Shown here one piece after another: positions 1-20,316 of a stretch of 45,304 nt of DNA (the first letter of the stretch is position 1; every line of letters starts with the position of its first letter). The notes beneath the pieces were generated by a model, which ran no database searches, was not told the DNA's origin, and saw nothing but the letters and a program-made list of their open reading frames with translations. The translations under genes were made by a program, and so were the position numbers. This DNA is from a virus (taxonomy: Duplodnaviria > Heunggongvirae > Uroviricota > Caudoviricetes), in the IMG/VR virus record IMGVR_UViG_3300044445_000054. The stretch is one strand, 5' to 3'.

Positions 1-795
1 CAGCTTGGCCACGCCCTTCTCGGGGTCCATGTCGTCGCCCGATGAGGTGGCGGTGAAGTTCTCGACCCAGTGGCGCATGTGGTTCATCGCCTCCACGAGC
101 GTGAACCGGACGGCCTTGTCGATGCCGCGCACCACGCGCGCCAGATACCCGGCGTGCCGAACCATCTGGATGTCGCGTTCGCCCTGTGGCACCACGTCCA
201 GCGGTGCGGAGCGGCCCGTCTGCGCGATGGTCAGGCCGGGCAGGTCGCCCAGCGCCTGACGCAGCACCCGCTCGATGTCCGTCGGCAGGACTTGGATTTT
301 GCCCAAGACCTCCCACAGGTTCGTGTCCGAGACATAGGGGCGCTCGGTCTTGGGGTGGATCGAGGGCGGCAGCACCATCTGGTTGCCCTTGCCCAGAAAC
401 TCGACGATCGACTGGTTGTCGCCGTCGCGCAGCTTGAAGTTGGGCTGACCCTGCCAGCGGTAGATCAGGCCCATGCCCTTCTGACCGACGCGCTTCCACG
501 GGGACGGCGGCAGGGCGGCGAGGATGGCGTCGATCTGCGCCTGATCCTCGGTGTCGATGTCGATCGCGCACAATCCCGAGGCCTCGCCGAACGGCAGGCC
601 GATGTTGGAGTCGGGATAGGTGTGCAGCCACGACCGCCGGATCGCCTCCGATGGCATGAACTCGCCGTACTGCGTCCACTCGTTCAGGATCGGGGCCTTA
701 CCCGCTCCCTTGCCGGGGCTGTTCCAGCGCTTCAAAGGCATGACGGGGATGCCCGCTGCCCAGTACAGCGGTGCGAAGTCCTTGAAAATGCTCAC
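1..795 (-). CDS. Bifunctional DNA primase/polymerase (Prim-Pol) N-terminal domain protein, 3'-truncated by the window edge
   Basis: Not in the ORF track because it runs off the edge. Hand translation from GTG at 795 gives MSIFKDFAPLYWAAGIPVMPLKRW...GKAP...NIGLPFGEASGLCAIDIDT...VEFLGKGNQMVLPPSIHPKTERPY. These are Prim-Pol-type motifs (NIGL, xDxD, VLPPSxH). Confidence 0.8.
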   Translation of the reverse strand, partial: MSIFKDFAPLYWAAGIPVMPLKRWNSPGKGAGKAPILNEWTQYGEFMPSEAIRRSWLHTYPDSNIGLPFGEASGLCAIDIDTEDQAQIDAILAALPPSPWKRVGQKGMGLIYRWQGQPNFKLRDGDNQSIVEFLGKGNQMVLPPSIHPKTERPYVSDTNLWEVLGKIQVLPTDIERVLRQALGDLPGLTIAQTGRSAPLDVVPQGERDIQMVRHAGYLARVVRGIDKAVRFTLVEAMNHMRHWVENFTATSSGDDMDPEKGVAKL

Positions 796-798
796 GAA

Positions 799-1005
799 TT
801 ATGCTCCGAGGAGAGGGTTCTGAGGCGGAAAGTCATCGTCATCGGCCGGACCGATGCCGGATTTCACGCAGACTGCCGCGCCGACGAGCCACAGGAAGCC
901 CAAGACGGGCTGGCCGTGGCGGGCCGCGGCGATGCCGAGGACCGCGAGGATCGCGGCGGCGATGATGTTCCCTATGCCGATCGCATAGGTGTTCGGGATT
1001 TTCAT
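799..1005 (-). CDS. Small two-TM membrane protein (68 aa)
   Basis: C-terminal part of track ORF 799..1533. ATG at 1005 overlaps the upstream stop (ATGA). Two hydrophobic segments (IGIGNIIAAAILAVLGIAA; VLGFLWLVGAAVCV) and an acidic tail. Confidence 0.7.
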   Translation of the reverse strand: MKIPNTYAIGIGNIIAAAILAVLGIAAARHGQPVLGFLWLVGAAVCVKSGIGPADDDDFPPQNPLLGA

Positions 1006-1499
1006 CGGTAAGGCTCCAGTCTTTTCATGAATTGTTCGCGGTCGGCCTCCGACACGAGGTCGTCCAAAATCTTGATGACCTGCTCCTGAAACTCGCCCAT
1101 CTTCTGCACCGTGGTGTGGCGCTCGGCGAGTTTCAGCATGCGCTCCAGCTGGTCGCCCTTGGTTTTCAGGAGGGCGAGCTTCTCGCGCACATCCATGCCA
1201 TCTGTGGCGTCCAGATCGTTGAGGCTCTTGATCGTGGCCCGGATTTCGTCCAGAACCAGCTGTTCGTCCTCCGCGGACAGGCGAATGTCCTTGGTCGGGC
1301 GGCCTCGTCCGTTCTTGGACTCGACCTGCACCTCCTTTTCGACGATCTTCTCGATCACCTTGGGCGCGAGCAGCTCGGCCAGCGCCAGCTTGGTCTCGTC
1401 GTCGTACGGACAATCGGGGTTTTCGAGGGTATCGAGCTGGCTTTTCAGCCCGATCAGGCCGGTCAGGACGGCCAAGCGGAGGGGAGGGAAGTTGCTCAT
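1002..1499 (-). CDS. Helical hypothetical protein with GRGRP motif; possible terminase small subunit
   Basis: 165 aa with phage-like codon bias, a KNGRGRPTK basic motif and predicted helical/coiled-coil C-half. The TerS role is inference only. Confidence 0.65.
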   Translation of the reverse strand: MSNFPPLRLAVLTGLIGLKSQLDTLENPDCPYDDETKLALAELLAPKVIEKIVEKEVQVESKNGRGRPTKDIRLSAEDEQLVLDEIRATIKSLNDLDATDGMDVREKLALLKTKGDQLERMLKLAERHTTVQKMGEFQEQVIKILDDLVSEADREQFMKRLEPYR

Positions 1500-1545
1500 G
1501 GGCCTGTCCTACCCGGATCGCCCGTACGCGCAACGCCTATTCCCG

Positions 1546-1563
1546 TTTCTACAGGGTAAGAAA
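1546..1563. promoter_or_regulatory. Imperfect palindrome TTTCTAC-AGG-GTAAGAAA (copy 1 of 3), putative operator
   Basis: Shares the TTTCTACnGnGTAA core with 9934 and 35993. Lies in a divergent intergenic gap. Confidence 0.45.
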
Positions 1564-1571
1564 CTCGGGCT

Positions 1572-1595
1572 GGTTGCCTCATAACCGCTTTATTT
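1572..1595 (+). promoter_or_regulatory. Putative late promoter box GGTTG-CCT-CA-T-AACC-GC-TTTATT
   Basis: Aligns base-for-base in spacing with 6580 and 9981. Followed by an AAGGAG SD and ATG at 1638. Confidence 0.55.
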
Positions 1596-1637
1596 TGGGC
1601 TGGGTCGGAGATACCCCGCCACTCTCAAGGAGCACCT

Positions 1638-4600
1638 ATGGCCGACGTGAAGACCTCTGCGTTCATGCTTTCGAGCGCGACGATCATGATCGGCCGCGCC
1701 TTCGTGGACGACGTGTTCGCCCTGACCCCCGACAAGCACTCCGTCGGCATGGTGTCCGAAGTCAACATCACGATGGACAGCTCGCTCACCGAGCTGACGA
1801 ACGGCGTTGCACAGGCGACGGTCGACTCCAAGCGCACCGGCCTGAGCACGGCAATCAGCGGCAACGTCTTCGAGATGACCGCCCAGAACTTCCTCCGCGC
1901 ACAGGGCATCACGACCGCCGCGACGCCCGTCAAGCGCGGCATCCTGATGGGGTCGGCCGCTGGTGGCTCGACCTCGCTCTCGGTCGCCTCCGACCCAATC
2001 CCCGGCGAAGCCACGTCGGCGCTCACGTCTGTCGGCGACATCCCGGCAGGATCGACCATCCTGATCCAGCGCGGCGACGGCGAGACCGATTACATCTTCC
2101 CGACCGTGTCGAGCGGCGCGGCGACGCTGAACGCCGGGCGCTACACGATCCCGATTGCGGGCGCGAGCGCGGTCCCCGCCGACATGTCGTTCCTGATCGG
2201 CGCACGGGTCTGGATCGTCCAGCCCGTCCCCGTTGGCGACATCGGCGATGACGAGTTCTTCTGCGTCAAGATCGTCGGCACCCTGTCCAACTTCGATCGG
2301 CCGGTGGTCTACATCGCGCCGAAGGTGAAGATGGTAAAGGGCTTCTCGGCCGCCTTCAACGAGACGCAGTACAGCTCGATGCAGTGGGAGCTGAAGCCCC
2401 ACATGATGAGCCGCGGCGAGATCGCCTCCGGTGGCCGCCTGTCCGAGATCGGCGCGCGTCGCACCGGCCGCCTGTTCGTGGGCGCGGGCAACGACAGCGC
2501 AACGCCGGGGGCCGTTGTCCCCGACGCCACGTTCTCGACCAACCCCAGCTTCACGCCGACCAGCGGCAACTCGGACACGGTCTTCACCGCCAACGACGGT
2601 GTCATCGTCAACGGCGCGTTCGCCGGACGCCGCTGGCTGCTCAGCGGCACGGCGATCGGCAGCGGAGCCACGATCAAGACGAACGCCGCGGGCCAGCTGG
2701 TGCTGGAAGTCTCGGCGCTCGGCACCAATGGTCGGGTCATCCAGTACACGACCGCGCCGCTCACGGTCGCCGCGGCTGCTGCCAAGACGCTGACGTTCCG
2801 CAACCCGCCGACGGTTCAGCTGAACGAGGGCGACTCGGGCACCAAGACCTTCACCTACTACATCGACGCGTCGGAGGCTCCGACCAGCAATCTTGTTGTT
2901 CCGCTTACGTTCCAAGCGGGCGGCACCGACGCCTCGGATTATCCGGGCGGCACGCTGCCGTCGGTGACGAGCGCCACGATCCTCGCCGGGCAGACGTCCG
3001 TGCGCGTCGACATCGTCACTTCGGGCGACACGACGGTCGAGGGCAACGAGACCTTCAACCTCCTGCTGTCGACGCCGACCGGCTGGACCGTCGGTGCCTT
3101 CACCAGCGCCAGCGGTGTCATCCTGAACGACGACGTCGCACCCAGCCCGACCGTCTCGCTCACCGCCGTGGATCCTCAGAACGAGGGCAACAGCGGCGTC
3201 ACCAACTACGTCTATACCGTGACCCGCTCGTCCACGAGCGGTGCGGTCAACGTGCCGTGGGCGTTCGCGGCAGGCACGACCAATGCGGCCGACTTCTTCG
3301 GCGGCCTGCCAACGGGCGGCACGGTGGCGCTCGCCAACGGCGTGGCATCCGGCACCTTCACCATCATGGTGCAGGGCGATGTCGACGTCGAGTCGAATGA
3401 GACCTTCACGGTCAGCCTGAACCCGCCGTCGGGGTACATCCTCGGCGCGACGAGCAGCGCGACGGGCACGATCCTCAACGACGACACGGTCTCGGCGATC
3501 GTGCCGTTCACGTCGGCGTTCATGACCGGCGATAGCCGCATGGACAACTCGGGCGGTCGAGGGGTAACCACAACCCTTTCGCTCACCTACGGGCAGACGG
3601 GTTACTCCAGCGCCGGGTTGATCCAGCCCATGCTTGGCAACAAGTGGCTTTGGCCGGAGGGGTTCCAGCGGTCGGTCGGTGCCAGCACCACGCTGCGCAT
3701 GGTCGAGGCAAATAAGACCGCCTCGTTTGCGCTGACGGGAAACACAGCGTTCGACAGCACCGCCAACGTTTACGACAAAATCTTCAACCGTGGCGCTGAC
3801 GGTCGCTACGCCCTGCGCGATCCGGGCACGGGCGCGCACGTCTTCGAGCTGAACAGCGTGAACGACGGCGGCGGCAACGGGTACTATAATCAGCCCTTTA
3901 CCGCTTCCAAGTCGATCATTCATACCGCCGCAGACATCGACGCCAATCTGGCGGCGGGCAAGGTGGTGTGGCTGTTCAACGGGTGCCCGTCGTACGCATC
4001 GGCGTACACGATGGAGCTTCGCACGATCACCGGGAATAGTTGGACTGCGACCCAGACGGCTGGCTTCATCGACGGCTTCGATTACGGCGCACCCGGCGTA
4101 GTCGGTGAGTTCGGTAGCACGCCCGCTGATTACCGAGTCATGACCCGCAAGGGCAGCAACCCCGGTCAGTACGAATACACGGTCGACGCCAACGGCAACT
4201 ACGTCGCGGGCGGCACGGCACCGACGCGAGTGTGGGTCACGCACACGGGCGGCGGCACCCTAAACGCGATCACGCCGACTTCCTCGCACATCAAGACCAT
4301 GTGGGCGTGGTACAACAGCAACGCCGCAAACTTCGTGTATAACGGCAATGACTACGGCATTCCGGGGTGTCGCTACAACCGCGATCCGAAGCGGCTCATC
4401 ATCGTCGATACGATGAAGTGGCTGCGCGCTGACCTAAATGACGGCGACGTCATGGCGGCCAAGCCCGGCACGATGGACATTCTGCGTTTGCACCACAACA
4501 TTCTCGGTGCATTCTGGATCAGTAAGGCCGTCGAAGAGGCGATGGCCACGGCGGGTTATGCCGCACAGCCGTCGCTCGACAAGCGCCCGATGCGCAACAA

Positions 4601-5591
4601 CTGGCCTGCGGCGATGGCAGCGGGAACTGCAAATCCGACGCTGACTTGCACTCTTCCTCCGTCCATGCGGATGGCCGTTCCGACTCAGCTGCGTCTCGGA
4701 ACCGTCGTTGTTGGTCTGGTGGACACGGCAACTGGCAATATCACAACGGCCCCTGGCGCGACTTATGCAATTACGGCGGGCAATATCAACTTCGCAACGG
4801 GTGCGCTTACCGTGACGTTTGCGGGAACGCCGCCTAACAGCACTCGACTGTATTGCGAGCAGGATTTCGGCGACGGCGCGGGCGTTGGGGGAAATCTGAT
4901 CCTTAACGGCATGCTTGACATGACGCCCTTGGACGGAAGCAACATCAACTTCGCTCGCACGGGCACCTCAACGATAACGGGCATCGCGAACTCGGAAGTC
5001 CCCGTGGGATACACGCTCCAGTCGTCGGGCAATGGTATGAACACGGCGATTGCAAACGGCACCGCATCGCTGACGGTGAGTTCCGACACCACAAACGGGT
5101 ATCCGATGTTCCGGCTGTCTGCGAAGGGTATCCACAGCTCAGCTATTGCCTTCACGCTGCAGCAGGCCAACGGGCCGTACGCGGCTCTGGTCCAACCCAC
5201 CGACAAGATTATGGCAGGGGCAACTCTGGTTCTTGAAGCTGGCTCGGACGGCTGGCTGTACGGCTTCGGTGGTTGCAATGTGTCGGGTACGCTGTCGATC
5301 CCCACGACCGATAAGACCGGCCCCAACGGTACGTTCGCGGTTACGCAGGTTTCCTCGAATGGATCGCGACTGGGTCAGAACGCGCAGAGCCTGTATGTGG
5401 ACAGCGCGCTGCTTGCCGCCAACGGGGGGCAGCCGTTCAAGAACCACTACCTCGGGCCTCAAGTCCAACCTGACGTGCAGCCGACTGGCACCGGAGGGTC
5501 GTTCTCCTTTTCGGTCGGAGCCAACGTCCCTTTCAGTTTCAAGATTGGCATTGGCCAGTATCACTCGCGCGTTCGCAACGACGTAACCTAA
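1638..5591 (+). CDS. Tail-tube (major tail protein) paralogue fused to an Ig-like domain, two Calx-beta domains, an SGNH-like hydrolase and a C-terminal beta-sandwich/lectin-like region (1317 aa)
   Basis: Residues 1-283 are about 75% identical (hand count 211/283) to the product of 16334..17182. Two Calx-beta repeats (NEGxSG...VExNETF...GxILNDD). GDS at 631-633, NSVND, and D947/H952 in DILRLHHNILG. Strong AAGGAG SD. Confidence 0.85.
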   Translation: MADVKTSAFMLSSATIMIGRAFVDDVFALTPDKHSVGMVSEVNITMDSSLTELTNGVAQATVDSKRTGLSTAISGNVFEMTAQNFLRAQGITTAATPVKRGILMGSAAGGSTSLSVASDPIPGEATSALTSVGDIPAGSTILIQRGDGETDYIFPTVSSGAATLNAGRYTIPIAGASAVPADMSFLIGARVWIVQPVPVGDIGDDEFFCVKIVGTLSNFDRPVVYIAPKVKMVKGFSAAFNETQYSSMQWELKPHMMSRGEIASGGRLSEIGARRTGRLFVGAGNDSATPGAVVPDATFSTNPSFTPTSGNSDTVFTANDGVIVNGAFAGRRWLLSGTAIGSGATIKTNAAGQLVLEVSALGTNGRVIQYTTAPLTVAAAAAKTLTFRNPPTVQLNEGDSGTKTFTYYIDASEAPTSNLVVPLTFQAGGTDASDYPGGTLPSVTSATILAGQTSVRVDIVTSGDTTVEGNETFNLLLSTPTGWTVGAFTSASGVILNDDVAPSPTVSLTAVDPQNEGNSGVTNYVYTVTRSSTSGAVNVPWAFAAGTTNAADFFGGLPTGGTVALANGVASGTFTIMVQGDVDVESNETFTVSLNPPSGYILGATSSATGTILNDDTVSAIVPFTSAFMTGDSRMDNSGGRGVTTTLSLTYGQTGYSSAGLIQPMLGNKWLWPEGFQRSVGASTTLRMVEANKTASFALTGNTAFDSTANVYDKIFNRGADGRYALRDPGTGAHVFELNSVNDGGGNGYYNQPFTASKSIIHTAADIDANLAAGKVVWLFNGCPSYASAYTMELRTITGNSWTATQTAGFIDGFDYGAPGVVGEFGSTPADYRVMTRKGSNPGQYEYTVDANGNYVAGGTAPTRVWVTHTGGGTLNAITPTSSHIKTMWAWYNSNAANFVYNGNDYGIPGCRYNRDPKRLIIVDTMKWLRADLNDGDVMAAKPGTMDILRLHHNILGAFWISKAVEEAMATAGYAAQPSLDKRPMRNNWPAAMAAGTANPTLTCTLPPSMRMAVPTQLRLGTVVVGLVDTATGNITTAPGATYAITAGNINFATGALTVTFAGTPPNSTRLYCEQDFGDGAGVGGNLILNGMLDMTPLDGSNINFARTGTSTITGIANSEVPVGYTLQSSGNGMNTAIANGTASLTVSSDTTNGYPMFRLSAKGIHSSAIAFTLQQANGPYAALVQPTDKIMAGATLVLEAGSDGWLYGFGGCNVSGTLSIPTTDKTGPNGTFAVTQVSSNGSRLGQNAQSLYVDSALLAANGGQPFKNHYLGPQVQPDVQPTGTGGSFSFSVGANVPFSFKIGIGQYHSRVRNDVT
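2790..3485 (+). repeat. Tandem pair of Calx-beta domain repeats (about 2790-3134 and 3153-3485)
   Basis: Both units read NEG(D/N)SG...T.A.D(Y/F)...GD..VE.NETF...L..P.G...GA..SA(S/T)G.ILNDD. Confidence 0.8.
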
Positions 5592-5603
5592 GAGGATAAA
5601 GAC

Positions 5604-6578
5604 ATGATGAAGTTTTTGATTGCTGCTGCAGCGATGCTTTGGGCGTCGCCCGTAGCCGCTGCTGATCTGACGGCGACCCCGTCGACCTACAAGACCGTCG
5701 CCGCCGCGGCCAAGTGCGGCGACACGGTGACGCTGGCGGCCGGTGACTACGGCGCGGTGCAGGTCACGCGCTACAACACGCCGGGTGCGATCGCGTGCCC
5801 CGCCGACAACCGCATCGAAATCCGCGCCGAGGATGCGCGAATGGACTCGCTGACCTTTCGCGCCGTGCAGGGCGTCAACTGGTTCGGCGGCTTCATCAGC
5901 GCACCGCTGGGCGTCGCCACCCCCGGCGTGACGATGGACAGCTCGCGCTTCGTCCGCTTCGCAGGCGGACTGGTCACCGGCCACAAGGTCGGCGTCACCG
6001 CGGTGCGCGGCTCCGACTATGAGATCGTCGGCAACCGCTTCCAGGGTCTGCGCAGCGACGGTATCAATGTAACCTCCTCGCAGCGCGTGCTGATCGAGAG
6101 CAATCAGGTCGTGATGACGGTGCCGATCAAGGCGACGTACACGCCCGAGGGCAAATTGCTGGTCGACGGCGACCATTCGGACGGTGTCCAAGCGTGGAAT
6201 ACGGCGGGCCTGCCGCGCGTGACCGATGTGACGATCCGCGGCAATTACTTCCGCGGCATGATGCAGGGTATCGCGGTGTTCGACGCGGGCAAGGGCGGCG
6301 TCGACCGCTTCATCGTCGAGAACAACACGATCGATGGCATCGACTTCTGGCACGGCATCACGCTGACCGAGGCGCGCGACAGCGTGATCCGCGATAACAT
6401 CGTGCTGACGCGCAAGGGTGCCAAGGCGTGGAACTTCCCGTTCCAGCCCATCAAGACGTGGGTGTCGATCCCCGGAGCGATCAACGTGGTCGCCTGCGGC
6501 AACACCGTCCCGGCGATGCCCGGCGGCGTGGGCACCAAGCCCTGTTCGGCGGCCACTGCCTTGCGGTCTGCCAAGTAA
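5604..6578 (+). CDS. Secreted right-handed parallel beta-helix (pectin-lyase-like) protein with Sec signal peptide
   Basis: N-terminus MMKFLIAAAAMLWASPVAAA|D is a classic signal peptide. Repeated beta-helix rungs (EIVGNRF, LIESNQV, TIRGNYF, IVENNTI, VIRDNIV) and GDHSDGVQ. Confidence 0.75.
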   Translation: MMKFLIAAAAMLWASPVAAADLTATPSTYKTVAAAAKCGDTVTLAAGDYGAVQVTRYNTPGAIACPADNRIEIRAEDARMDSLTFRAVQGVNWFGGFISAPLGVATPGVTMDSSRFVRFAGGLVTGHKVGVTAVRGSDYEIVGNRFQGLRSDGINVTSSQRVLIESNQVVMTVPIKATYTPEGKLLVDGDHSDGVQAWNTAGLPRVTDVTIRGNYFRGMMQGIAVFDAGKGGVDRFIVENNTIDGIDFWHGITLTEARDSVIRDNIVLTRKGAKAWNFPFQPIKTWVSIPGAINVVACGNTVPAMPGGVGTKPCSAATALRSAK

Positions 6579-6579
6579 C

Positions 6580-6603
6580 GGTTGCCCCACAACCATTTGA
6601 TCT
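6580..6603 (+). promoter_or_regulatory. Putative late promoter box GGTTG-CCC-CA-C-AACC-AT-TTGATCT
   Basis: Begins one base after the upstream stop. TTGATC starts 36 nt before the terminase ATG. Confidence 0.55.
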
Positions 6604-6633
6604 TGCCGTCGCCTTCAATCTAAGGCGACGGCA
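6604..6633 (+). promoter_or_regulatory. Perfect 12-bp hairpin ending on the A of the terminase start codon
   Basis: TGCCGTCGCCTT-CAATCT-AAGGCGACGGCA. No U-tract on either strand. Confidence 0.6.
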
Positions 6634-8390
6634 TGTTCGACGAACTATATCAAGCAGTGAAGATGCGCTTCGGCGACGTGAACGCGTCGCAGTCGATGGG
6701 CAACTGGATCACGTCGAACACCACCATCAAGAAGCGCCCTTTCTCGTACGAGGGCTACGGCTTCCAGAAAGCCATCGCCGACGACATGCACCGCAACGTG
6801 TCGGTGAAGAAGTGCTCGCAGATCGGCCTCACCGAGGTCCAAATCCGCAAGTTCTTGGCGATCCTCACCCGATCGACAGCGATCGCGGGCATCTTCTCGA
6901 TGCCCAACGAGAAGATGTTCACCAAGACCTATAACGGTCGCATCAAGCCGATCCTCGAAGCGGATGCCGTCTTCAACCCGCCGTCGGCCATGAAGCCGAC
7001 GCGGTCGAAGGATCAAATCCAAATCCGGGACAGCTTCGGCTATATCACCGCCTGTACCGAGGGCGACGCCACCTCGCTGTCCGCCGACTTCCTGTTCCAC
7101 GACGAGCTGGACCTCAGCCCGCAGGAGATCATCGCACTGTACCAGAGCCGCCTCCAAGGCTCGGACATGCAGATCACCCAGTCCTTCTCGACCCCGACCT
7201 TCTCCGGCTACGGCATCGACAAGAACTATCAGCTGACCGACCAGCGCGAGTACAAGGCGAAGTGCGGTGGCTGCGGCCGGTGGCACATCCCGCTGTTCAA
7301 GCCCGAGTTCATCTACCTCAAGAAGTTCCCGTTCGACGTCGAGCACTTCACGGAGCTGACGGCGCAGCAGATCGCGCTGCTCGATCTGGAGGACTGCCAC
7401 GTCAAGTGCCCCGACTGCTCGACGCGGTTCGATCTGGGCAACGACGACCTGCGCGAGTGGGTGGCGCTGCGCCCGTCGGTGCTCAACTTCCGCGGCTATC
7501 AGGTCCGCCCCTTCTCGACGCCGCGCATCAAGCCGTCCTACATCTTCGGGCAGCTGGCGCAGTATCAGGAGAAGTCGTTCACCCGAGGCTTCTACAACAC
7601 CGTGCTCGGCGAGGAATACACCGCCGCCGACGCGCGCCTGCAAGAGGCCGACATCAAGGCCTGCATGGCGAAGGGCACCGCCGCGGTGCCGGACATTTCG
7701 GCGGACACGCCGTGCTACATGGGCATCGACGTCGGCCTGACCTGCTACATCACCGTCAGCTATGACGATGACGACGGCAACCCGCACTTCGTCTATTGGG
7801 ACACGGTGCCCGCCTCGTCGCTCCAGCGCCGGGTCGAGGAGTTGTGCCGGGTCTACAACATCGTGCAGGGCGCGATCGACCGCTTCCCGTACACGACCGA
7901 GGCGGATGCGCTGCGCGACACGACGCAGGGCCTCATCATCCCGGTCCAGTACCGCGGTCTTCAGATGCTGTCGCCGGTGATGGAAGCCGACACCAAGGTC
8001 TTGAACCATTATTCCGCAAACAACACGCTGGCGCTCGATCGCGTGCAGGCGCTGGTCAGCCACCGGGTCATGACGATCTCCGGCTATCAGGGCCAGCGCG
8101 AGACGGTCATCAAGCACCTGATGGACATGGTCCGCGACGACAAGCCGTCGGACAGCGACAACGTGCTGGGCGAGTGGAAGAAGACCAGTGGCAACGACCA
8201 CTTCATGCACTCGGCCGCCTTCAACCTGCTCGCGCGCCGGATCGGCGACCACATGTTCGCGACCCAGATTTCAACGGTGGCCACTACTTCCTCTTTTCTC
8301 GGGGCGAGCTTTGCGAGTACGCAAGGAATGCTCAACTTCAACGGGACCGGCAAAATGACCGGCCTCAACCGCATTTCGAGGCTCGGATAA
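6633..8390 (+). CDS. terL: Terminase large subunit, lambda GpA family
   Basis: KKCSQIGLTE (GpA-type Walker A), FLFHDELD (Walker B), CxxC pairs (CGGC, CPDC) and nuclease YMGIDVG. Confidence 0.9.
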   Translation: MFDELYQAVKMRFGDVNASQSMGNWITSNTTIKKRPFSYEGYGFQKAIADDMHRNVSVKKCSQIGLTEVQIRKFLAILTRSTAIAGIFSMPNEKMFTKTYNGRIKPILEADAVFNPPSAMKPTRSKDQIQIRDSFGYITACTEGDATSLSADFLFHDELDLSPQEIIALYQSRLQGSDMQITQSFSTPTFSGYGIDKNYQLTDQREYKAKCGGCGRWHIPLFKPEFIYLKKFPFDVEHFTELTAQQIALLDLEDCHVKCPDCSTRFDLGNDDLREWVALRPSVLNFRGYQVRPFSTPRIKPSYIFGQLAQYQEKSFTRGFYNTVLGEEYTAADARLQEADIKACMAKGTAAVPDISADTPCYMGIDVGLTCYITVSYDDDDGNPHFVYWDTVPASSLQRRVEELCRVYNIVQGAIDRFPYTTEADALRDTTQGLIIPVQYRGLQMLSPVMEADTKVLNHYSANNTLALDRVQALVSHRVMTISGYQGQRETVIKHLMDMVRDDKPSDSDNVLGEWKKTSGNDHFMHSAAFNLLARRIGDHMFATQISTVATTSSFLGASFASTQGMLNFNGTGKMTGLNRISRLG

Positions 8391-9917
8391 ATGGCTGACA
8401 GCATTCTCAGCGGCCTCGGAGCCGTTCTCCTGCCCAAGGGCAAGGGCGTGAAGGGCGGCAAGGGCGCGCCACCGGGCTTTGTCCGGTCGCAGCCCACCAT
8501 GACCGCGCCGACGTACCGCGACCATCTGACGGACGTCTATACTACCCGCGTCGCCAACGACAGCCGCGAGCTGATCGCCACGCTGGCGAACATGGACCCC
8601 GACGTCTCGGCCGCGATCAACGCGTTCCTCGGCGTCGCCGGATCGGTGGACCCGGTCGTCACCGCCTATGACGAGAACGACGAGATCGACGCCGAAGGCA
8701 TCGCGATGGGGCAGCAGCTGCTCGCGCTCCTGACGACGACCAACGATTACACGCTGGGGTACAGCGACAAGCCGACGGTCGACGCCCTGTGCAGCGACCA
8801 TCGCTACATGATGCTGCTGCGCGGCGGCACCGCGTGCGAGCTGATCCTCGACAAGACCTACGTGCCCTATGAGCTGCGCACCGTCGATCCGGCGACGCTG
8901 ACGTGGAACCAGACCGCGCCCGGCGTCTACAAGCCGGTCCAGAAGCCTGCCGGGTCGAACGAGGAAATCGACCTCAACATCCCGACGTTCTTCACGTCCA
9001 ACTTCCATCAGTCGCCGCTCGGCAAATACACCTTCTCGCCGTTCGTCTCGGCGATCAACACGATCGCGTCGCGCACGCTCGTCATCAACGAGCTGTACCG
9101 GATCATGAAGATCGTCGGCTACCCGCGCGTGGACGTGGCCGTGCTCGAAGACGTGCTGATGAAGTCGGCTCCGCCCGCCTTCCGCAATCAGCCGGAGAAA
9201 ATCCGCGGCTACGTGCAGGCCGAGCTGGCCGCGATCCGCGGCGCGATCGCCAACCTCGGGTCGGGTGATGCCTTCGTCCACTCGAACGCGATCGACGCGA
9301 AGATCATCAACGACAAGAACCCGTCGGCGGGCATCCAAATCCAGGGTGTTATCGACGTGCTCAACGCCCAGAACCAAGCGGCGCTGAAGGTCATGCCCGC
9401 CGTGGTCGGCAAGGCCAACAACGGGCAGGTCGCATCGACCGAGGCGCGGCTGTTCGCGCTGTCGGCGGACGCCCTGAACCGCGCGGTCGCGGGCATCTTC
9501 ACCAAGGCGTTCACGCTCGCTGCCCGGCTGGCGGGTTACACCGGCCGGATCGAGGTGTTCTTCCCGCCGGTCGAGCTGCGCCCGACGATGGAGCTGGAGC
9601 CGCAGTGGACCATGAAGGCCAGCCGCCTTCGGCAGGACTTGAGCGACGGCGTCATCAGCGACATGGAATACACCATGCAGATGTATGGTCGCCCGCCGCT
9701 GAAGGGCGCGCCCGAGCTGTCCGGCACGAAGTTCGCCGATCCGGTCTCGCCGATCGACGCGGGCGCGGCGTCGCCGAACAGCGACTCGCTCGGCCGCTCG
9801 CTGTCGGGTGAGGGCGGCAACGGCGTCGGCCGGAACAATGCGGTCAAGAGCGGTGGTGCCAAGACCAAGCTGGTGTTCGAGACCGGCGACGGCGGCACGA
9901 TCGAACTCGCCCTTTAG
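8391..9917 (+). CDS. Portal protein
   Basis: 508 aa, abuts the terminase. Size, position and helical character fit a portal. No motif-level proof. Confidence 0.75.
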   Translation: MADSILSGLGAVLLPKGKGVKGGKGAPPGFVRSQPTMTAPTYRDHLTDVYTTRVANDSRELIATLANMDPDVSAAINAFLGVAGSVDPVVTAYDENDEIDAEGIAMGQQLLALLTTTNDYTLGYSDKPTVDALCSDHRYMMLLRGGTACELILDKTYVPYELRTVDPATLTWNQTAPGVYKPVQKPAGSNEEIDLNIPTFFTSNFHQSPLGKYTFSPFVSAINTIASRTLVINELYRIMKIVGYPRVDVAVLEDVLMKSAPPAFRNQPEKIRGYVQAELAAIRGAIANLGSGDAFVHSNAIDAKIINDKNPSAGIQIQGVIDVLNAQNQAALKVMPAVVGKANNGQVASTEARLFALSADALNRAVAGIFTKAFTLAARLAGYTGRIEVFFPPVELRPTMELEPQWTMKASRLRQDLSDGVISDMEYTMQMYGRPPLKGAPELSGTKFADPVSPIDAGAASPNSDSLGRSLSGEGGNGVGRNNAVKSGGAKTKLVFETGDGGTIELAL

Positions 9918-16238: not shown

Positions 16239-16259
16239 AAATCTCCGGTGGTGACGGGC

Positions 16260-16281
16260 GGTTGGCATTTTCTCTATTGAG
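16260..16281 (+). promoter_or_regulatory. Putative late promoter variant GGTTG-N12-TTGAG
   Basis: Same 12-nt spacing as the three fuller copies. Upstream of the tail-tube gene. Confidence 0.4.
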
Positions 16282-16333: not shown

Positions 16334-17182
16334 ATGGCCGACGTTCAGAAGTCCGCATTTGCCCTGTCCTCGGCCACGATCATGATCGGTCGCGCCTTCG
16401 TGGACGATGTTTTTGGTCTTTCGCCCGACAAGCATTCGGTCGGCATGGTGTCGGAGGTGAACATCGCCCTCGACAGCTCGCTGACGGAATTGATGAACGG
16501 CGTCGCGCAGGCCACTGTCGACTCGAAGCGCAGCGGTATCTCCGCCAGCATCACCGGCAACGTCTACGAAATGACCGCGCAGAACTTCCTGCGAGCCAGC
16601 GCGCTGTCGACGACCGCCGTGCCGGTGAAGCGTGGCCGTCTGTCCACCGCCATTGCCAGCGGCGGTGTGTCGCTGTCGATCGTGTCCGACCCGATCCCCG
16701 GTGAGGCCACCTCGGCGATCACGGCGCTGACCGACATTCCGGCCGGGTCGACCATCCTGATCCAGCGCGGCGACGGCGAGACGGACTACGTCTTCCCGAC
16801 CGTCACGTCGGCAGCGGCGACGGGCACCGGCCCGTTCGTCGTGCCGATCGCGGGCACCTATGCCATCCCCGCCGACCTGTCGTTCCCGGTCGGCGCGCGT
16901 GTCTGGGTCGTGCACCCGGTTCCGGTCGGCGACATCGACGCGGACGAGCTGTTCTGCGTGAAGATCGCGGGCACGCTGTCCAACTTCGATCGCCCCGTCG
17001 TGTACGTCGCGCCGAAGGTGAAGATGGTGAAGGGCTTCGGCATCTCGTTCAACGAGACGCAGTACAGCTCGATGCCGTGGGAAATGAAGCCGCTGCTCAT
17101 GAGCCGCGGCGAGATCGCCTCGGCGGTCCGGCTGGCCGAAGTCGGCTCGCGGCGCTCCGGCCGACTGTACGTCGGCGGTTAA
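16334..17182 (+). CDS. Major tail (tube) protein, 282 aa
   Basis: ATG 16334 with AAGGAG SD (the track start 16262 is probably too early). Siphovirus tube-like beta protein with an internal insert. Followed by a terminator. Confidence 0.8.
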   Translation: MADVQKSAFALSSATIMIGRAFVDDVFGLSPDKHSVGMVSEVNIALDSSLTELMNGVAQATVDSKRSGISASITGNVYEMTAQNFLRASALSTTAVPVKRGRLSTAIASGGVSLSIVSDPIPGEATSAITALTDIPAGSTILIQRGDGETDYVFPTVTSAAATGTGPFVVPIAGTYAIPADLSFPVGARVWVVHPVPVGDIDADELFCVKIAGTLSNFDRPVVYVAPKVKMVKGFGISFNETQYSSMPWEMKPLLMSRGEIASAVRLAEVGSRRSGRLYVGG

Positions 17183-17199: not shown

Positions 17200-17207
17200 A
17201 ATGCACG

Positions 17208-17239
17208 AGAGGCGGTCCAATGGGCCGCCTCTTTTGTTT
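17208..17239 (+). terminator. Rho-independent terminator after the tail-tube gene
   Basis: AGAGGCGGTCC-AAT-GGGCCGCCTCT followed by TTTGTTT. Confidence 0.85.
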
Positions 17240-17248
17240 GGAGCCATC

Positions 17249-17740
17249 GTGGCTGAAATCCCCGTCGAACACGTCCGTGACTCGCACAAGCTCCTCGCCG
17301 ACGGGCGGGTCGATTTGTTCGAGCTGACGCCGTCGGGCGGCACGGGTGTTATCCGGTTCAAGAACGACAACAACGTCACATGGCGCGGCCAGCTCTACAC
17401 CGGCCTGCCGCTAACGCTCACCGGCGAGAAGCGCAGCGATAACGGCAACACCATGCCGCGGCTCCAGATCGGTCAGCCCAACATCGACATCTCGCAGTTC
17501 AAGGCGCTGGTCTACGACGGGTATCTGGACAACGCGATCGTCACCAAGATCACGGTGCTGCTCGACAACCTCATCAACAACCGCTTCATCCGCGAGACCA
17601 CGACCTACCGCGTCAAGCGCGTCGAGGGCTACTCGCGTTCGCAGATTAGCCTCCAGCTGGCGACCCTCTCCGACAGCCTCGGCTTCTCCATGCCCTACCG
17701 GACGTACACGCCGCCGGGTTTCCCCTCGGTGCAAATGTGA
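17249..17740 (+). CDS. Minor tail protein, lambda gpL-like N-terminal domain
   Basis: GTG 17249 with GGAG SD. LFEL...IRF.N...V.WRGQ.Y...P....G...S..G..PRL pattern. Confidence 0.7.
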   Translation: MAEIPVEHVRDSHKLLADGRVDLFELTPSGGTGVIRFKNDNNVTWRGQLYTGLPLTLTGEKRSDNGNTMPRLQIGQPNIDISQFKALVYDGYLDNAIVTKITVLLDNLINNRFIRETTTYRVKRVEGYSRSQISLQLATLSDSLGFSMPYRTYTPPGFPSVQM

Positions 17741-18204
17741 TGAAGTACGAGCACCTTGTCGGCCGACCCTTCACGGGCATCGGCCGCGACGATTGCCTCA
17801 AGCTGATGCGCGACGTCTACCGCGACAACTTCGGCATCGAGATTTCCGACTACGCGCGCCCGCACGACTGGTCCTCGGACACGCTCGATCTCATGCGCCT
17901 GTGCTACCGGCGCGAGCGGTTCGAGATGATTACGGACTGGCGTCCGACGGACTTGCGGCCGGGCGATCTGCTATGTATGGCGATCGGCAGCAGCAATGCG
18001 AACCACTTCGCCGTGTACCTCGGCGACGACCAGATCATCCACCACCTGTACGGACGCATGTCGTCGGTCGAGGTGTTCCGAGACTTCTACCGCAACTCGA
18101 TCTGCTACGTGCTGCGGCACCCCGACGTCCCCAACCTCACGCCGGTCTACCCCGACGTGGACATTGCGAGTTTGCTCCGTGCTCGAAACAATCCTCCAGC
18201 CTGA
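17737..18204 (+). CDS. NlpC/P60 peptidase-domain tail assembly protein (gpK C-terminal half)
   Basis: GRDDCLKLMRDVY (catalytic Cys), LRPGDLL, NHFAVYLGDDQIIHH (His). Confidence 0.85.
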   Translation: MMKYEHLVGRPFTGIGRDDCLKLMRDVYRDNFGIEISDYARPHDWSSDTLDLMRLCYRRERFEMITDWRPTDLRPGDLLCMAIGSSNANHFAVYLGDDQIIHHLYGRMSSVEVFRDFYRNSICYVLRHPDVPNLTPVYPDVDIASLLRARNNPPA

Positions 18205-18511
18205 CGACACCGAGGAGCGCTGCGGCCTCATCCTCAACGACGACTCGCTGGTCGAGATCGAGAACACCGCCGACGACAAGACGGGTAGCTACCACATGCG
18301 CGCCGAAGCGGTCCTGCCGTTCCTCGCCGCCGGGATGGTCAAGGGTACGTGGCACACGCACCCGAACAGCGACCCGACCTTGAGTGGTGAGGATTATTCC
18401 GGCTTCCTTGATTGGCCCGGTCTGGTGCATAGCATCGTCGGCCGCCGCGATGGCGCGGTAGTCGTGACGACCTACAAGGTCGAGGACGGGCTGGTGATCG
18501 CATGCGACTAA
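18179..18511 (+). CDS. JAB/MPN (JAMM) domain protein (gpK N-terminal half)
   Basis: EERCGLIL...WHTHPNSDPTLSGED is a complete JAMM motif. Start is uncertain (GTG 18179 or TTG 18164). Confidence 0.85.
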   Translation: MLETILQPDDTEERCGLILNDDSLVEIENTADDKTGSYHMRAEAVLPFLAAGMVKGTWHTHPNSDPTLSGEDYSGFLDWPGLVHSIVGRRDGAVVVTTYKVEDGLVIACD

Positions 18512-19032
18512 TCTTCCACGGCCAGCTCCGCACCCTCTTCGGCCCCGACGTGGTCATGGTCGCGCACCGCGTCGGCGATGCGATCGAGGGCTTCTCGCGT
18601 CAGGTCGCGTGGCCCAAGGACATGCTGATCGACGTGGTCGGTTTCAACACGCCCGAGAGCTTCCACGACTTCGCCGAGGAAGTTCACATCATGCCCGCGA
18701 TGCGCGGCGGCGGCGGCAAGTTCGGATCGATCATTCTCGGCGCGGCGGTGGTCGCGCTGGGTGTCGCCCTGATCGCCACGCCCTTCGGCATCCCGCTGAT
18801 CGTCAGCGGCGGCTTGATGATCGCGCAGGGCGTCATCGGCCTGTTCTTGAAATCCCCGACGATCAAGGGCGTCAATGACCCCGAGGCGTCGAAGTACCTG
18901 CCCATCAACCGCAACACCACCGCGGTCGGCACCGTCATCACGATGGCGTGGGGCACGATCGATCTGGCCGGACACTGGCTCAGCCTCCAGTCCGACAGCA
19001 ACAATATCTCCTACGGCGTCTTCCCAGCATAA
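18502..19032 (+). CDS. Tail assembly protein, lambda gpI-like
   Basis: MRLIFHGQLRTLFG ubiquitin-like N-terminus, IHIMPAMRGGGGK motif and a hydrophobic Gly-rich segment. Confidence 0.8.
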   Translation: MRLIFHGQLRTLFGPDVVMVAHRVGDAIEGFSRQVAWPKDMLIDVVGFNTPESFHDFAEEVHIMPAMRGGGGKFGSIILGAAVVALGVALIATPFGIPLIVSGGLMIAQGVIGLFLKSPTIKGVNDPEASKYLPINRNTTAVGTVITMAWGTIDLAGHWLSLQSDSNNISYGVFPA

Positions 19033-19041
19033 GGACTGAAC

Positions 19042-20289
19042 ATGGACACTGCCACCCTCGAAAAGCTCAAGCCTTGGGCCACACCAATCCAGAGCGGCTA
19101 CATCGACGCGATCATCGCCAGCGACGGCAACGTCAAGAAAGCCGCCGAGCTTCTCGACCGTCACCCCCGTAAGGTCCAAGAGGCGATCGCTCGCGTCCGC
19201 CTCGCCGCCGCCGGGCACGGATTTAGCCCGGAGCACGGCCTCAACTCACCAGTGCCCGCTCCGTTCATCGCCAAGGGCCACTCGACGCTCGAACGCGTGG
19301 AACTGGACGGCTCCCGCACCCCGGTCCTCCAATGGACCAAGACCCGCCTCGACGATCATGCGTGGGCCGACCAGATCAAGCTCGGCGTCGAAGCCATGCT
19401 GGCCGACATCGAGCCGCGCGAGCTGCCCGCCGCGCCGCTGATCGGCGATCGTGACCTGATCCCGTGGATCCAGATTGGCGACGCCCACCTCGGCATGCTG
19501 GCCCACGAGGCCGAGACCGGAGCCAACTTCGACCTCAAGATCGCCGAAGCCGAGCTGATGGGCGCGATCGACATTCTGATCGACGACCTGCCCGAGGTCG
19601 AGCGCCTTGTCATCAACGACCTCGGCGACTTCACCCACTACGAGAACATGGCAGGCGTCACCGAGCACAGCCGCAACGTGCTGGACTACGACGGCCGGTT
19701 CCCGAAGATGATCGAGGTCTATTCGCGCATGATGCGCGGGATCATCGAGAAGGCGCTGACCAAGGCCGCCGTCGTGGACGTGATCGTCAATCAGGGCAAT
19801 CACAGCCGCACGAACGACATCTGGATGGCGGTGCTGCTGCGGGCGCTGTACGAGGGCAGCGGGCGCGTCAACGTCCTGAACAACCGTTCGCCGTTCATCG
19901 GCTACCGGATGGGCAACACGTTCGTGATGACGCACCACTCCGACACCTGCAAGCCCGCCCGGCTGGCGTCGGTCATGGCGACCGACTTCGCCCGCGACTG
20001 GGGTGAGTGCGACTACCGCTACATCGACATCGGCCACATCCATCACGGCATGGTCCTGAAGGAGCATCCGGGCGTCGTGATCGAGAGCTTCAACCAGCTC
20101 GCGGCCAAGGACAAGTGGGCCACCGACGGCGGCTATCGCAGTCGCCAGTCGATCTCCATGATCTATCGCTCGCGCACGTACGGCGAGATCGGCCGCCGTC
20201 TCCTGCCGCTGCGGCAGGTGCAGGACCGCATCCGCATGACGGCCACGGACCACTACGTCGCACCGGAGCGGCGGGCCTTCACCGTCTAA
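19042..20289 (+). CDS. Calcineurin-like metallophosphoesterase with N-terminal helix-turn-helix-like region
   Basis: All five metal motifs are present: IGDAHLG, DLGDFTH, QGNHS, THHSD, IGHIHH. N-terminus GNVKKAAELLDRHPRKV is HTH-like. Confidence 0.8.
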   Translation: MDTATLEKLKPWATPIQSGYIDAIIASDGNVKKAAELLDRHPRKVQEAIARVRLAAAGHGFSPEHGLNSPVPAPFIAKGHSTLERVELDGSRTPVLQWTKTRLDDHAWADQIKLGVEAMLADIEPRELPAAPLIGDRDLIPWIQIGDAHLGMLAHEAETGANFDLKIAEAELMGAIDILIDDLPEVERLVINDLGDFTHYENMAGVTEHSRNVLDYDGRFPKMIEVYSRMMRGIIEKALTKAAVVDVIVNQGNHSRTNDIWMAVLLRALYEGSGRVNVLNNRSPFIGYRMGNTFVMTHHSDTCKPARLASVMATDFARDWGECDYRYIDIGHIHHGMVLKEHPGVVIESFNQLAAKDKWATDGGYRSRQSISMIYRSRTYGEIGRRLLPLRQVQDRIRMTATDHYVAPERRAFTV

Positions 20290-20292
20290 GGC

Positions 20293-20316
20293 GGTTGCCG
20301 GTCTTCTGTGTTGCAT
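20293..20316 (+). promoter_or_regulatory. Putative late promoter variant GGTTG-N13-TTGCAT
   Basis: Starts 4 nt after the upstream stop. TTGCAT begins 35 nt before the tape-measure ATG. Confidence 0.4.

Follow-up and report, generated by a model that had tools for sequence, protein, structure and literature searches.

The 45,304-nt stretch of the tailed virus IMGVR_UViG_3300044445_000054 (Caudoviricetes), referred to here as the window, has a G+C content of 64.6% and carries, at positions 1638-5591 of its plus strand, one unbroken frame for a 1317-residue protein (P0001) that begins with a second copy of the phage's tail tube subunit. Residues 1-282 of P0001 align by BLASTP with the full 282-residue product (P0002) of the resident tube gene at 16334-17182, with 211 of 282 positions identical (75%), one gap, and an E-value of 5e-149. 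The nucleotide identity between the tube domain of the fusion and the resident tube gene is 75.5%, and the start codons of the two genes lie 14,696 bases apart. A preliminary description of this locus had reported a paralogy of about 75% by hand count, together with the coordinates and a spacing of 14.7 kb, and had placed the second tube copy, at 1638, in a separate gene outside the tail module that holds the resident copy at 16334; all of this proved correct. The fusion gene, its upstream signals and the resident tube gene are laid out as follows.

1571-1592, plus strand: promoter-like box tGGTTG-N13-TTA upstream of the fusion gene
1627-1632, plus strand: Shine-Dalgarno sequence AAGGAG, 5 nt before the ATG of the fusion gene
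1638-2486, plus strand: tail-tube domain of the fusion (residues 1-283), 75% identical to P0002
2487-2531, plus strand: linker of 15 residues (284-298), aligning with the long (TP)n linker of a related fusion protein, P0337
2532-2786, plus strand: Ig-like beta module of about 85 residues (299-383), recurring in other phages, no Pfam family
2787-3137, plus strand: Calx-beta-like domain 1 (residues 384-500), homologous to the Calx-beta domain of P0337
3138-3488, plus strand: Calx-beta-like domain 2 (residues 501-617), 49% identical to the Calx-beta domain of P0337
3489-4667, plus strand: orphan module A (residues 618-1010), SGNH-like by motifs only
4668-5591, plus strand: orphan module B (residues 1011-1317) and stop codon, rich in Gly, Thr, Ala and Ser, no matches
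16334-17182, plus strand: resident (canonical) tail tube gene, 282 residues, in the tail module upstream of the tape measure gene; its profile and fold match the tube of phage Mystique

The third codon position is the richest in G+C in every 300-nt block of the frame, so the whole of 1638-5591 is coding. P0001 has no signal peptide. The Shine-Dalgarno sequence and promoter box previously ascribed to the fusion gene are both present. The same AAGGAG is found at the resident tube gene, and boxes of the form CGGTTG-N12/13-TTG stand on the plus strand before the genes for the large terminase (TerL; box at 6579-6599), the resident tube (16259-16279) and the tape measure protein (TMP; 20292-20313). 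The strict pattern has six matches against 1.24 expected, and six were reached in 2 of 100 shuffles; the box (C/T)GGTTG-N12/13-TT(G/A) may be a late promoter. The Shine-Dalgarno sequence that the fusion gene has in common with late structural genes, and the similar upstream box, count in favor of a structural role for its product.

Profile and structure comparisons agree on the identity of the shared domain. A profile built from 99 sequences of the tube family matches the chain 9n71_B, "Tail tube" of Acinetobacter phage Mystique, in the Protein Data Bank (PDB) with an E-value of 8.8e-67, and residues 3-258 of P0001 match phrog_28493 (E 2e-28). The AlphaFold2 (AF2) model of the resident tube protein has a predicted local distance difference test score (pLDDT) of 94, and its best Foldseek match is again the Mystique tail tube 9n71 (E 3.7e-19, template modeling scores (TM) of 0.77 and 0.81), followed by the tube proteins of JBD30, YSD1 and Chi. 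The model displays the tube fold with its beta-sandwich core, long hairpin, peripheral helix and inserted outer domain; it was made for the resident copy, to which the paralogue is 75% identical. Distant homologues of the 282-residue protein (24-29% identity), all annotated as hypothetical, occur in Caulobacter phage Seuss, Achromobacter phage JWF, Xylophilus phage Lumi and the Acinetobacter phages EAb13 and Mystique, and that of Seuss directly precedes a frameshifted chaperone gene and the tape measure gene. The resident copy has this tube-typical position ahead of chaperone and tape measure genes and the fusion gene does not, lying instead between a divergent 165-residue gene and TerL. By profile and modeled fold, the shared domain is a genuine siphovirus tail tube of the Mystique/Seuss type (phrog_28493), as had been proposed. 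Using the JBD30 tube structure as a template (PMC11445458), residues 1-90 and 200-282 can by analogy be assigned to the core and hinge hairpin, and residues 91-199 to the inserted outer domain.

We modeled two resident subunits together with the tube domain of the paralogue, alongside three controls. The complex scored 0.67 and the best control 0.00; the mark that was passed is reached by 58 of 80 solved complexes and by 2 of 110 mismatched pairs. Contact agreement between runs was at least 93%, and the pLDDT of the partner at least 83. The paralogue is placed between the two resident subunits with both of its lateral faces in use, and its last strand (residues 274-283) packs on the outer domain of the neighbor, so that the payload would leave the ring on the outside. 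The paralogue can thus be modeled as a ring neighbor, as the preliminary description had anticipated. Because the structure of a like complex has been solved (9n71), and the modeled partner shares 75% of its residues with the resident subunit, the predictor may have reproduced what it had learned from such structures. Its pass speaks for likeness and is not a proof that the paralogue binds.

The second copy shows the constraint of a functional tube. Between the two tube copies of the window the ratio of nonsynonymous to synonymous substitution rates (dN/dS) is 0.23, with a dS of 0.78. Compared with 119 canonical tubes, the paralogue retains all 30 invariant positions and 60 of the 67 positions conserved in at least 90% of them, and the changes are conservative. 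By these measures the second tube copy is under purifying selection. Identity within the window pair is 79% in the core and 68% in the outer domain. Across the paralogue-cognate pairs the values are 79-88% and 60-68%, as compared with 77±3% and 70±4% for equally diverged canonical pairs.

The payload behind the tube domain starts with the short linker and the Ig-like module, continues with two Calx-beta-like domains and ends in about 700 orphan residues. The Ig-like module (299-383) is 52% and 45% identical to two repeats in the protein P0067 and 45-66% identical to modules in open reading frames (ORFs) of about 1000 residues in other IMG/VR phages, where ORFs with the Ig or Ig-Calx module adjoin tail or baseplate genes. 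A comparison with Pfam matched no family, so that of the Ig-like domain put forward earlier the recurring module stands, and a family or fold assignment does not. The two predicted Calx-beta domains fared unequally. Residues 519-616 match PF03160 with 26.8 bits (E 5.6e-6), just under the gathering cut-off of 27, and residues 413-498 with only 15.6 bits (E 0.016). A precomputed annotation also assigns PF03160 to P0001, more than 80 Calx-beta proteins match the Calx stretch, domain 2 weakly matches PDB chains of the Na/Ca exchanger CBD, and the motif ILNDD terminates both domains.

The end of the protein is of a different kind. Module A contains, in this order, the motifs GDS (631), GASTT (681), SVND (740) and LHHN (951), which had been read as an SGNH-like domain. 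A check against the SGNH blocks I (GDS), II (G), III (GxND) and V (DxxH) found block III without its Gly, no Asp three residues before the His, and a long spacing of about 210 residues between blocks III and V. Residues 615-1010 matched no family at all in Pfam (E≤1) or NCBIfam (E≤5), the SGNH families PF13472, PF00657 and PF03629 included, and no PDB sequence at E≤10, and the single-sequence AF2 model of residues 615-1317 was unusable (pLDDT 32). The SGNH-like domain is thus not upheld, and the support for a "hydrolytic" arm and a "depolymerase display" amounts to the motifs only. Residues 618-1317 were unmatched in Pfam, NCBIfam, PDB sequences, the ESM Atlas, IMG/VR and JGI metagenome contigs. 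For residues 615-1317, tblastn against 50,697 phage records found no homologue, nor did a comparison with one Sphingomonas metagenome-assembled genome (MAG), and 401 Sphingomonadales genomes gave only a chance-level match (E 8e-4) with internal stops. The large protein-cluster search drew its query words from the first 500 residues of P0001. The G+C content at third codon positions (GC3) is about 0.9 over the first 700 codons, as in the rest of the phage, and falls to 0.63-0.75 over the last 400, which suggests that the end module was acquired from elsewhere.

The fusion gene belongs to an optional cassette. On its 5' side lie the divergent 165-residue gene and a primase gene, both on the minus strand, and on its 3' side a 324-residue gene followed by TerL. 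In two complete 83-kb relatives with terminal repeats, whose terminases are 90-92% identical to that of the window, the 165-residue gene stands 115-123 bp from the terminase gene with nothing between them. Positions 1638-6578 are thus 5 kb of DNA inserted where the late operon begins. The other gene of the cassette is as follows.

5604-6578, plus strand: right-handed beta-helix protein of 324 residues (PF13229, E 2.7e-10; NosD, E 7e-9)

This beta-helix protein also matches the tail spike family phrog_2234 (E 6e-5) and starts with a typical N-terminal Sec-type signal peptide, MMKFLIAAAAMLWASPVAAADL, which makes its secretion, and its absence from the virion, probable. The optional cassette would then encode, besides the fusion, a predicted secreted polysaccharide-active enzyme. 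A separate record, L040 (IMGVR_UViG_3300034069_001058, bases 1-9500), has a terminase 92% identical to that of the window and carries dihydrolipoamide-dehydrogenase-like and Mfd/TRCF genes within about 4.3-9.4 kb upstream of TerL. With these bacterial housekeeping genes upstream of TerL, L040 is a prophage-host junction or a chimera; it hints that some family members integrate.

A survey for duplicated tubes with variable C-termini, of the kind proposed in the preliminary description, found a tube paralogue at exactly the same locus in three further related contigs (L021, L003 and L053). The paralogue of L021 (P0337, 933 residues) joins a tube domain and a (TP)n linker to the same Ig-like module and a single Calx-beta domain, and its last ~410 residues are unrelated. 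Over the first ~520 residues its identity to P0001 is 54%, and genes for 311 and 528 residues come after it. The other two contigs carry short paralogues. That of L003 (P0203, 311 residues) has a 28-residue repeat tail and is followed by genes for a 476-residue hydrolase/tail-fibre-like protein and a 587-residue SASA esterase; that of L053 (P0166, 324 residues) has a 41-residue tail and is followed by a homologue of the 476-residue gene of L003. The paralogue cassette therefore exists in fused and split forms with variable cargo. In L003 (10001-14148), the two proteins encoded after the paralogue start with a similar motif, L-T-x-x-Q-x-A-L-L-x-A-L, and the 28-residue tail of the paralogue contains two LSLDGT-x-AT repeats, which may be docking sites for two cargo proteins.

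The search of a cluster database for tube fusions of 724-2305 residues returned only the query, and the longest of its 131 tube representatives at 50% identity has 391 residues. The 933-residue fusion P0337 was recovered by a DNA-level scan; since the cluster-database searches missed all long forms, their negatives are uninformative on rarity. In two further contigs, L042 (7695-10793; about 63% G+C for the contig) and L043 (7680-10274), the Ig-Calx stalk stands behind an N-terminus of about 100 residues and ends in a PF12831 (FAD_oxidored-like) module, another case of this stalk carrying varied cargo.

FastTree phylogenies place each paralogue as sister to the canonical tube encoded in the same genome, to which it is about 75-78% identical. 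The support for these sister relationships is 0.89-0.91 for the window pair, 0.96 for L021 with L023/L008, and 0.99 for the L003 pair together with one relative. L021 and L023 were recovered from one sample, their ends overlap in 25 identical bases, and an ORF continues in frame from one into the other; on these grounds they are taken as one genome. Such tracking of the resident tube would follow if the paralogue contacted resident subunits only. Site counts among the two fusions and their resident tubes favor the grouping of each fusion with its own tube (25-26 sites) over paralogue with paralogue (12) and the crosswise grouping (7-8). A few residues run the other way: T6 and M10 are common to both fusions and P0166, Lys6 being present in 97% of canonical tubes, and L129, S131 and S237 are common to both fusions.

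Recent gene conversion between the two copies was considered and rejected, as there are no long identical tracts, the identity in 90-nt windows ranges from 0.57 to 0.84, and dS is 0.78. Any homogenization of the tubes would, by the same dS and lack of identical tracts, be old. The sequences are most simply explained by a single old fusion gene with a tube domain that stayed compatible with the resident tube or was re-made to fit it. As a possible alternative, the tube gene may have been duplicated into this site more than once, each copy then capturing the same stalk.

Apart from the fusion, the window contains a siphovirus late region, recognized by PHROG scans.

Start 6633, plus strand: large terminase (TerL)
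Start 8391: portal
Start 11657: major head protein
Start 20346: tape measure protein, 1694 residues
Start 26388: J-like protein, 1718 residues

The tube-to-TMP interval (17201-20289, plus strand) has an unusual gene order and encodes the following proteins.

Within 17201-20289, plus strand: minor tail protein (phrog_18), 179 residues
Within 17201-20289, plus strand: L-like protein (phrog_30/2552), 155 residues
Within 17201-20289, plus strand: tail assembly protein (phrog_32), 176 residues
Within 17201-20289, plus strand: exonuclease/metallophosphatase-type protein, 415 residues (phrog_704, E 3e-91)

The L/K-like genes of EAb13 and Seuss lie downstream of the tape measure gene, unlike the order in the window, and no G/GT-type chaperone pair was recognized in the same interval. 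Among phage records, no near-identical relative of the window was found. Homologues of the 282-residue tube with 57-78% identity are common in metagenomes, mostly on contigs of about 80-84 kb, and close relatives also occur in Sphingopyxis indica (one) and a Sphingomonas MAG (one), making a sphingomonad the probable host. The source contig of 131,277 bp is about 1.6 times as long as the complete 83-kb relatives and was most likely assembled as a concatemer of a genome with terminal redundancy or circular permutation.

We propose that P0001 is a facultative structural tail protein, and rate at about even odds that it mixes into the tail tube and displays arms there. Residues 1-283 would be an assembly-competent copy of the phage's own tube subunit, filling a subunit position in the hexameric rings beside the resident protein, with the C-terminal strand of the tube domain on the ring exterior. 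The linker, the Ig-like module and the two Calx-beta domains would form a stalk of roughly 10 nm, by which the orphan end module, about 700 residues long, would be held clear of the shaft. The arm would bind, and possibly modify, the host surface polysaccharide and so aid adsorption, like the Ig, FN3 and carbohydrate-binding module (CBM) decorations of tubes elsewhere; it would be supplied by a separate paralogous gene in a swappable cassette, with neither a fusion to the major tube gene nor a frameshift in it. The sequences establish the paralogy, the identity of the domain as a tube, purifying selection, and a cassette that recurs in relatives; that the protein enters virions, that mixed rings are dispersed over the shaft, and that the arm binds glycans or acts as an enzyme is inferred. 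Of the mixed tail claimed in the preliminary description, co-assembly appears likely, and "along the shaft" is only one of two possible geometries.

Several observations weigh against this proposal. The paralogue evolves faster than the resident tube, with a mean identity to other canonical tubes of 63% as compared with 69%. In the window pair the modeled interface is 77% identical and the rest 73% (Fisher p 0.49), the same as between orthologous tubes; in the other two paralogue-cognate pairs, the interface identity is 84%. The rare shared changes in the N-terminal arm and the interface (K6T, M10 and S237) could reflect a specialized position and not free mixing. T5 p140, the published case of a separate tube paralogue, builds one ring instead of a mixed shaft (PMC10038345). 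The cassette is dispensable, as it is missing from the closest complete relatives. For the end module of about 700 residues no family could be detected and the AF2 model failed, and glycan binding or an esterase activity is conjecture.

A more elaborate form of the proposal, which we put forward tentatively, is a plug-in arm system in which an ancestral tube paralogue serves as a universal socket adaptor, is re-matched to the tube of each phage by gene conversion or strong co-evolution, and exchanges its cargo freely. The cargo would be covalently fused, as in the 1317- and 933-residue proteins, or docked through a short repeat tail, as in those of 311 and 324 residues, where it would consist of separate hydrolase or esterase genes sharing an N-terminal motif. 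Such a system would account for the grouping of each paralogue with its own tube, and for the rare signature residues that paralogues nevertheless share. The same shared residues suit a geometry that we regard as possible but somewhat doubtful, namely one dedicated hexameric ring at a fixed position, for example between the distal tail protein and the first tube ring or under the neck, with six radiating arms and no mixing in the shaft. It would be the covalent equivalent of p140, p132 and pb1 in phage T5, where p140, a duplicate of the tube protein pb6, makes up one ring only, next to the distal tail protein, and bears the p132 collar and the L-shaped pb1 fibres on its C-terminus; T4 gp54 is another single tube-like ring (PMC10038345). 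The N-terminus mediates ring-to-ring contacts in T5 (PMC10038345), which lends weight to the K6T, A/S10M and S237 changes common to the fused paralogues. The repeat tails of P0203 and P0166, with their separate enzyme genes, recall docking on the p140 C-terminus, and six arms of 1,000 residues fit one ring more easily than a shaft. The likeness to T5 extends to a duplicated tube gene separate from the major one, found here as well, and in T5 the product of this gene fastens lateral host-binding appendages by its C-terminus. With their separate enzyme genes, the short paralogues of L003 and L053 resemble this non-covalent arrangement. However, p140 is only 9% identical to pb6, is undecorated and is encoded in the baseplate cluster (PMC10038345), whereas the window paralogue is 75% identical to its own tube, has covalently fused cargo and lies upstream of the terminase gene, not among baseplate genes. 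It keeps all invariant residues, and nothing obvious limits its position or blocks stacking. The tracking of the tube in three lineages and the raised core and interface identity fit heterotypic lateral contacts better.

The optional cassette outside the tail module, the neighboring beta-helix protein whose signal peptide probably sets it apart from the virion, and the faster paralogue branch would also suit a protein that never enters the virion, a reading that we consider improbable. Such a protein would be a soluble factor that binds or caps tubes, hinders the tail assembly of competitors, or brings an enzyme to tails or debris in the lysate, acting freely at lysis together with the secreted beta-helix enzyme. 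This is difficult to reconcile with purifying selection on a fully retained tube-forming core, with a paralogue that follows the resident tube instead of diverging, and with the lack of a signal peptide in P0001; comparable Ig-Calx proteins of other phages are also encoded near tail genes. That the gene is an artefact, either an assembly chimera of the tube gene of a second strain with an unrelated gene or a read-through caused by a sequencing error, is very improbable indeed, even though it sits on a 131-kb metagenomic contig whose relatives measure about 83 kb. The tube-linker-Ig-Calx architecture recurs at this locus, within a single frame, on an independent contig of a different sample, and two more contigs have a paralogue there; the coding signal is unbroken over the junctions, and the tube domain stops exactly at the end of the resident protein and is followed by an ordinary linker. 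On these grounds an assembly chimera was rejected.

The closest known systems include, besides the T5 ring, the decorated major tube proteins, among them lambda gpV with its C-terminal Big_2 Ig domain, T5 pb6, YSD1 (Big_1), SPP1 gp17.1*, where a frameshift adds an FN3 domain at a 3:1 ratio, and the CBM-bearing extensions of lactococcal 936 phages (PMC8718954, PMC6669499). Like gpV and gp17.1*, P0001 would carry outward C-terminal domains on a tube subunit, of a type thought to bind cell-surface carbohydrate, and as in SPP1 the decorated form would be a minority subunit mixed into the rings. In contrast to these, the decoration comes from a second gene, 75% identical and 14.7 kb away, in an optional cassette; the cargo comprises about 1030 residues in at least five modules instead of one domain of about 90 residues; and the end module is swapped between relatives. 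A decoration encoded by the tube gene itself or by read-through is not what the window contains, as the resident gene stops at 17182 without an extension. Mystique (9n71) and the phrog_28493 phages Seuss, JWF and EAb13 have a homologous tube fold and belong to the same sequence family, but each of their records has a single tblastn place for the tube and no extension. To call the locus an "undescribed system" is too strong, given the fibre-anchoring rings of a tube paralogue published for T5 (PMC10038345). A literature search, of incomplete coverage, found no description of a fused tube paralogue. Particular to the present case are the high identity to the resident tube, the dispensable cassette, the Ig-Calx stalk, the interchangeable cargo in fused and split forms, and the tracking of the resident tube.

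Genes of this kind should not be called "hypothetical" by annotation pipelines or taken for a second major tail protein, and in practice the tube-domain anchor could display large cargo on siphovirus tails. In the tracking of each resident tube by its paralogue, nature has set up an experiment on the limits that assembly compatibility places on duplicated structural genes. A tail-shaft decoration is as a rule a single small domain, and the tube gene itself supplies it. If our proposal is true, a cassette-borne tube duplicate would provide a very large, exchangeable and possibly enzymatic tail appendage while the essential tube gene is left untouched. If, moreover, the paralogue acts as a re-matched socket for freely exchanged cargo, these phages would have a new evolvable route to host-range or depolymerase functions without altering the essential tail module.

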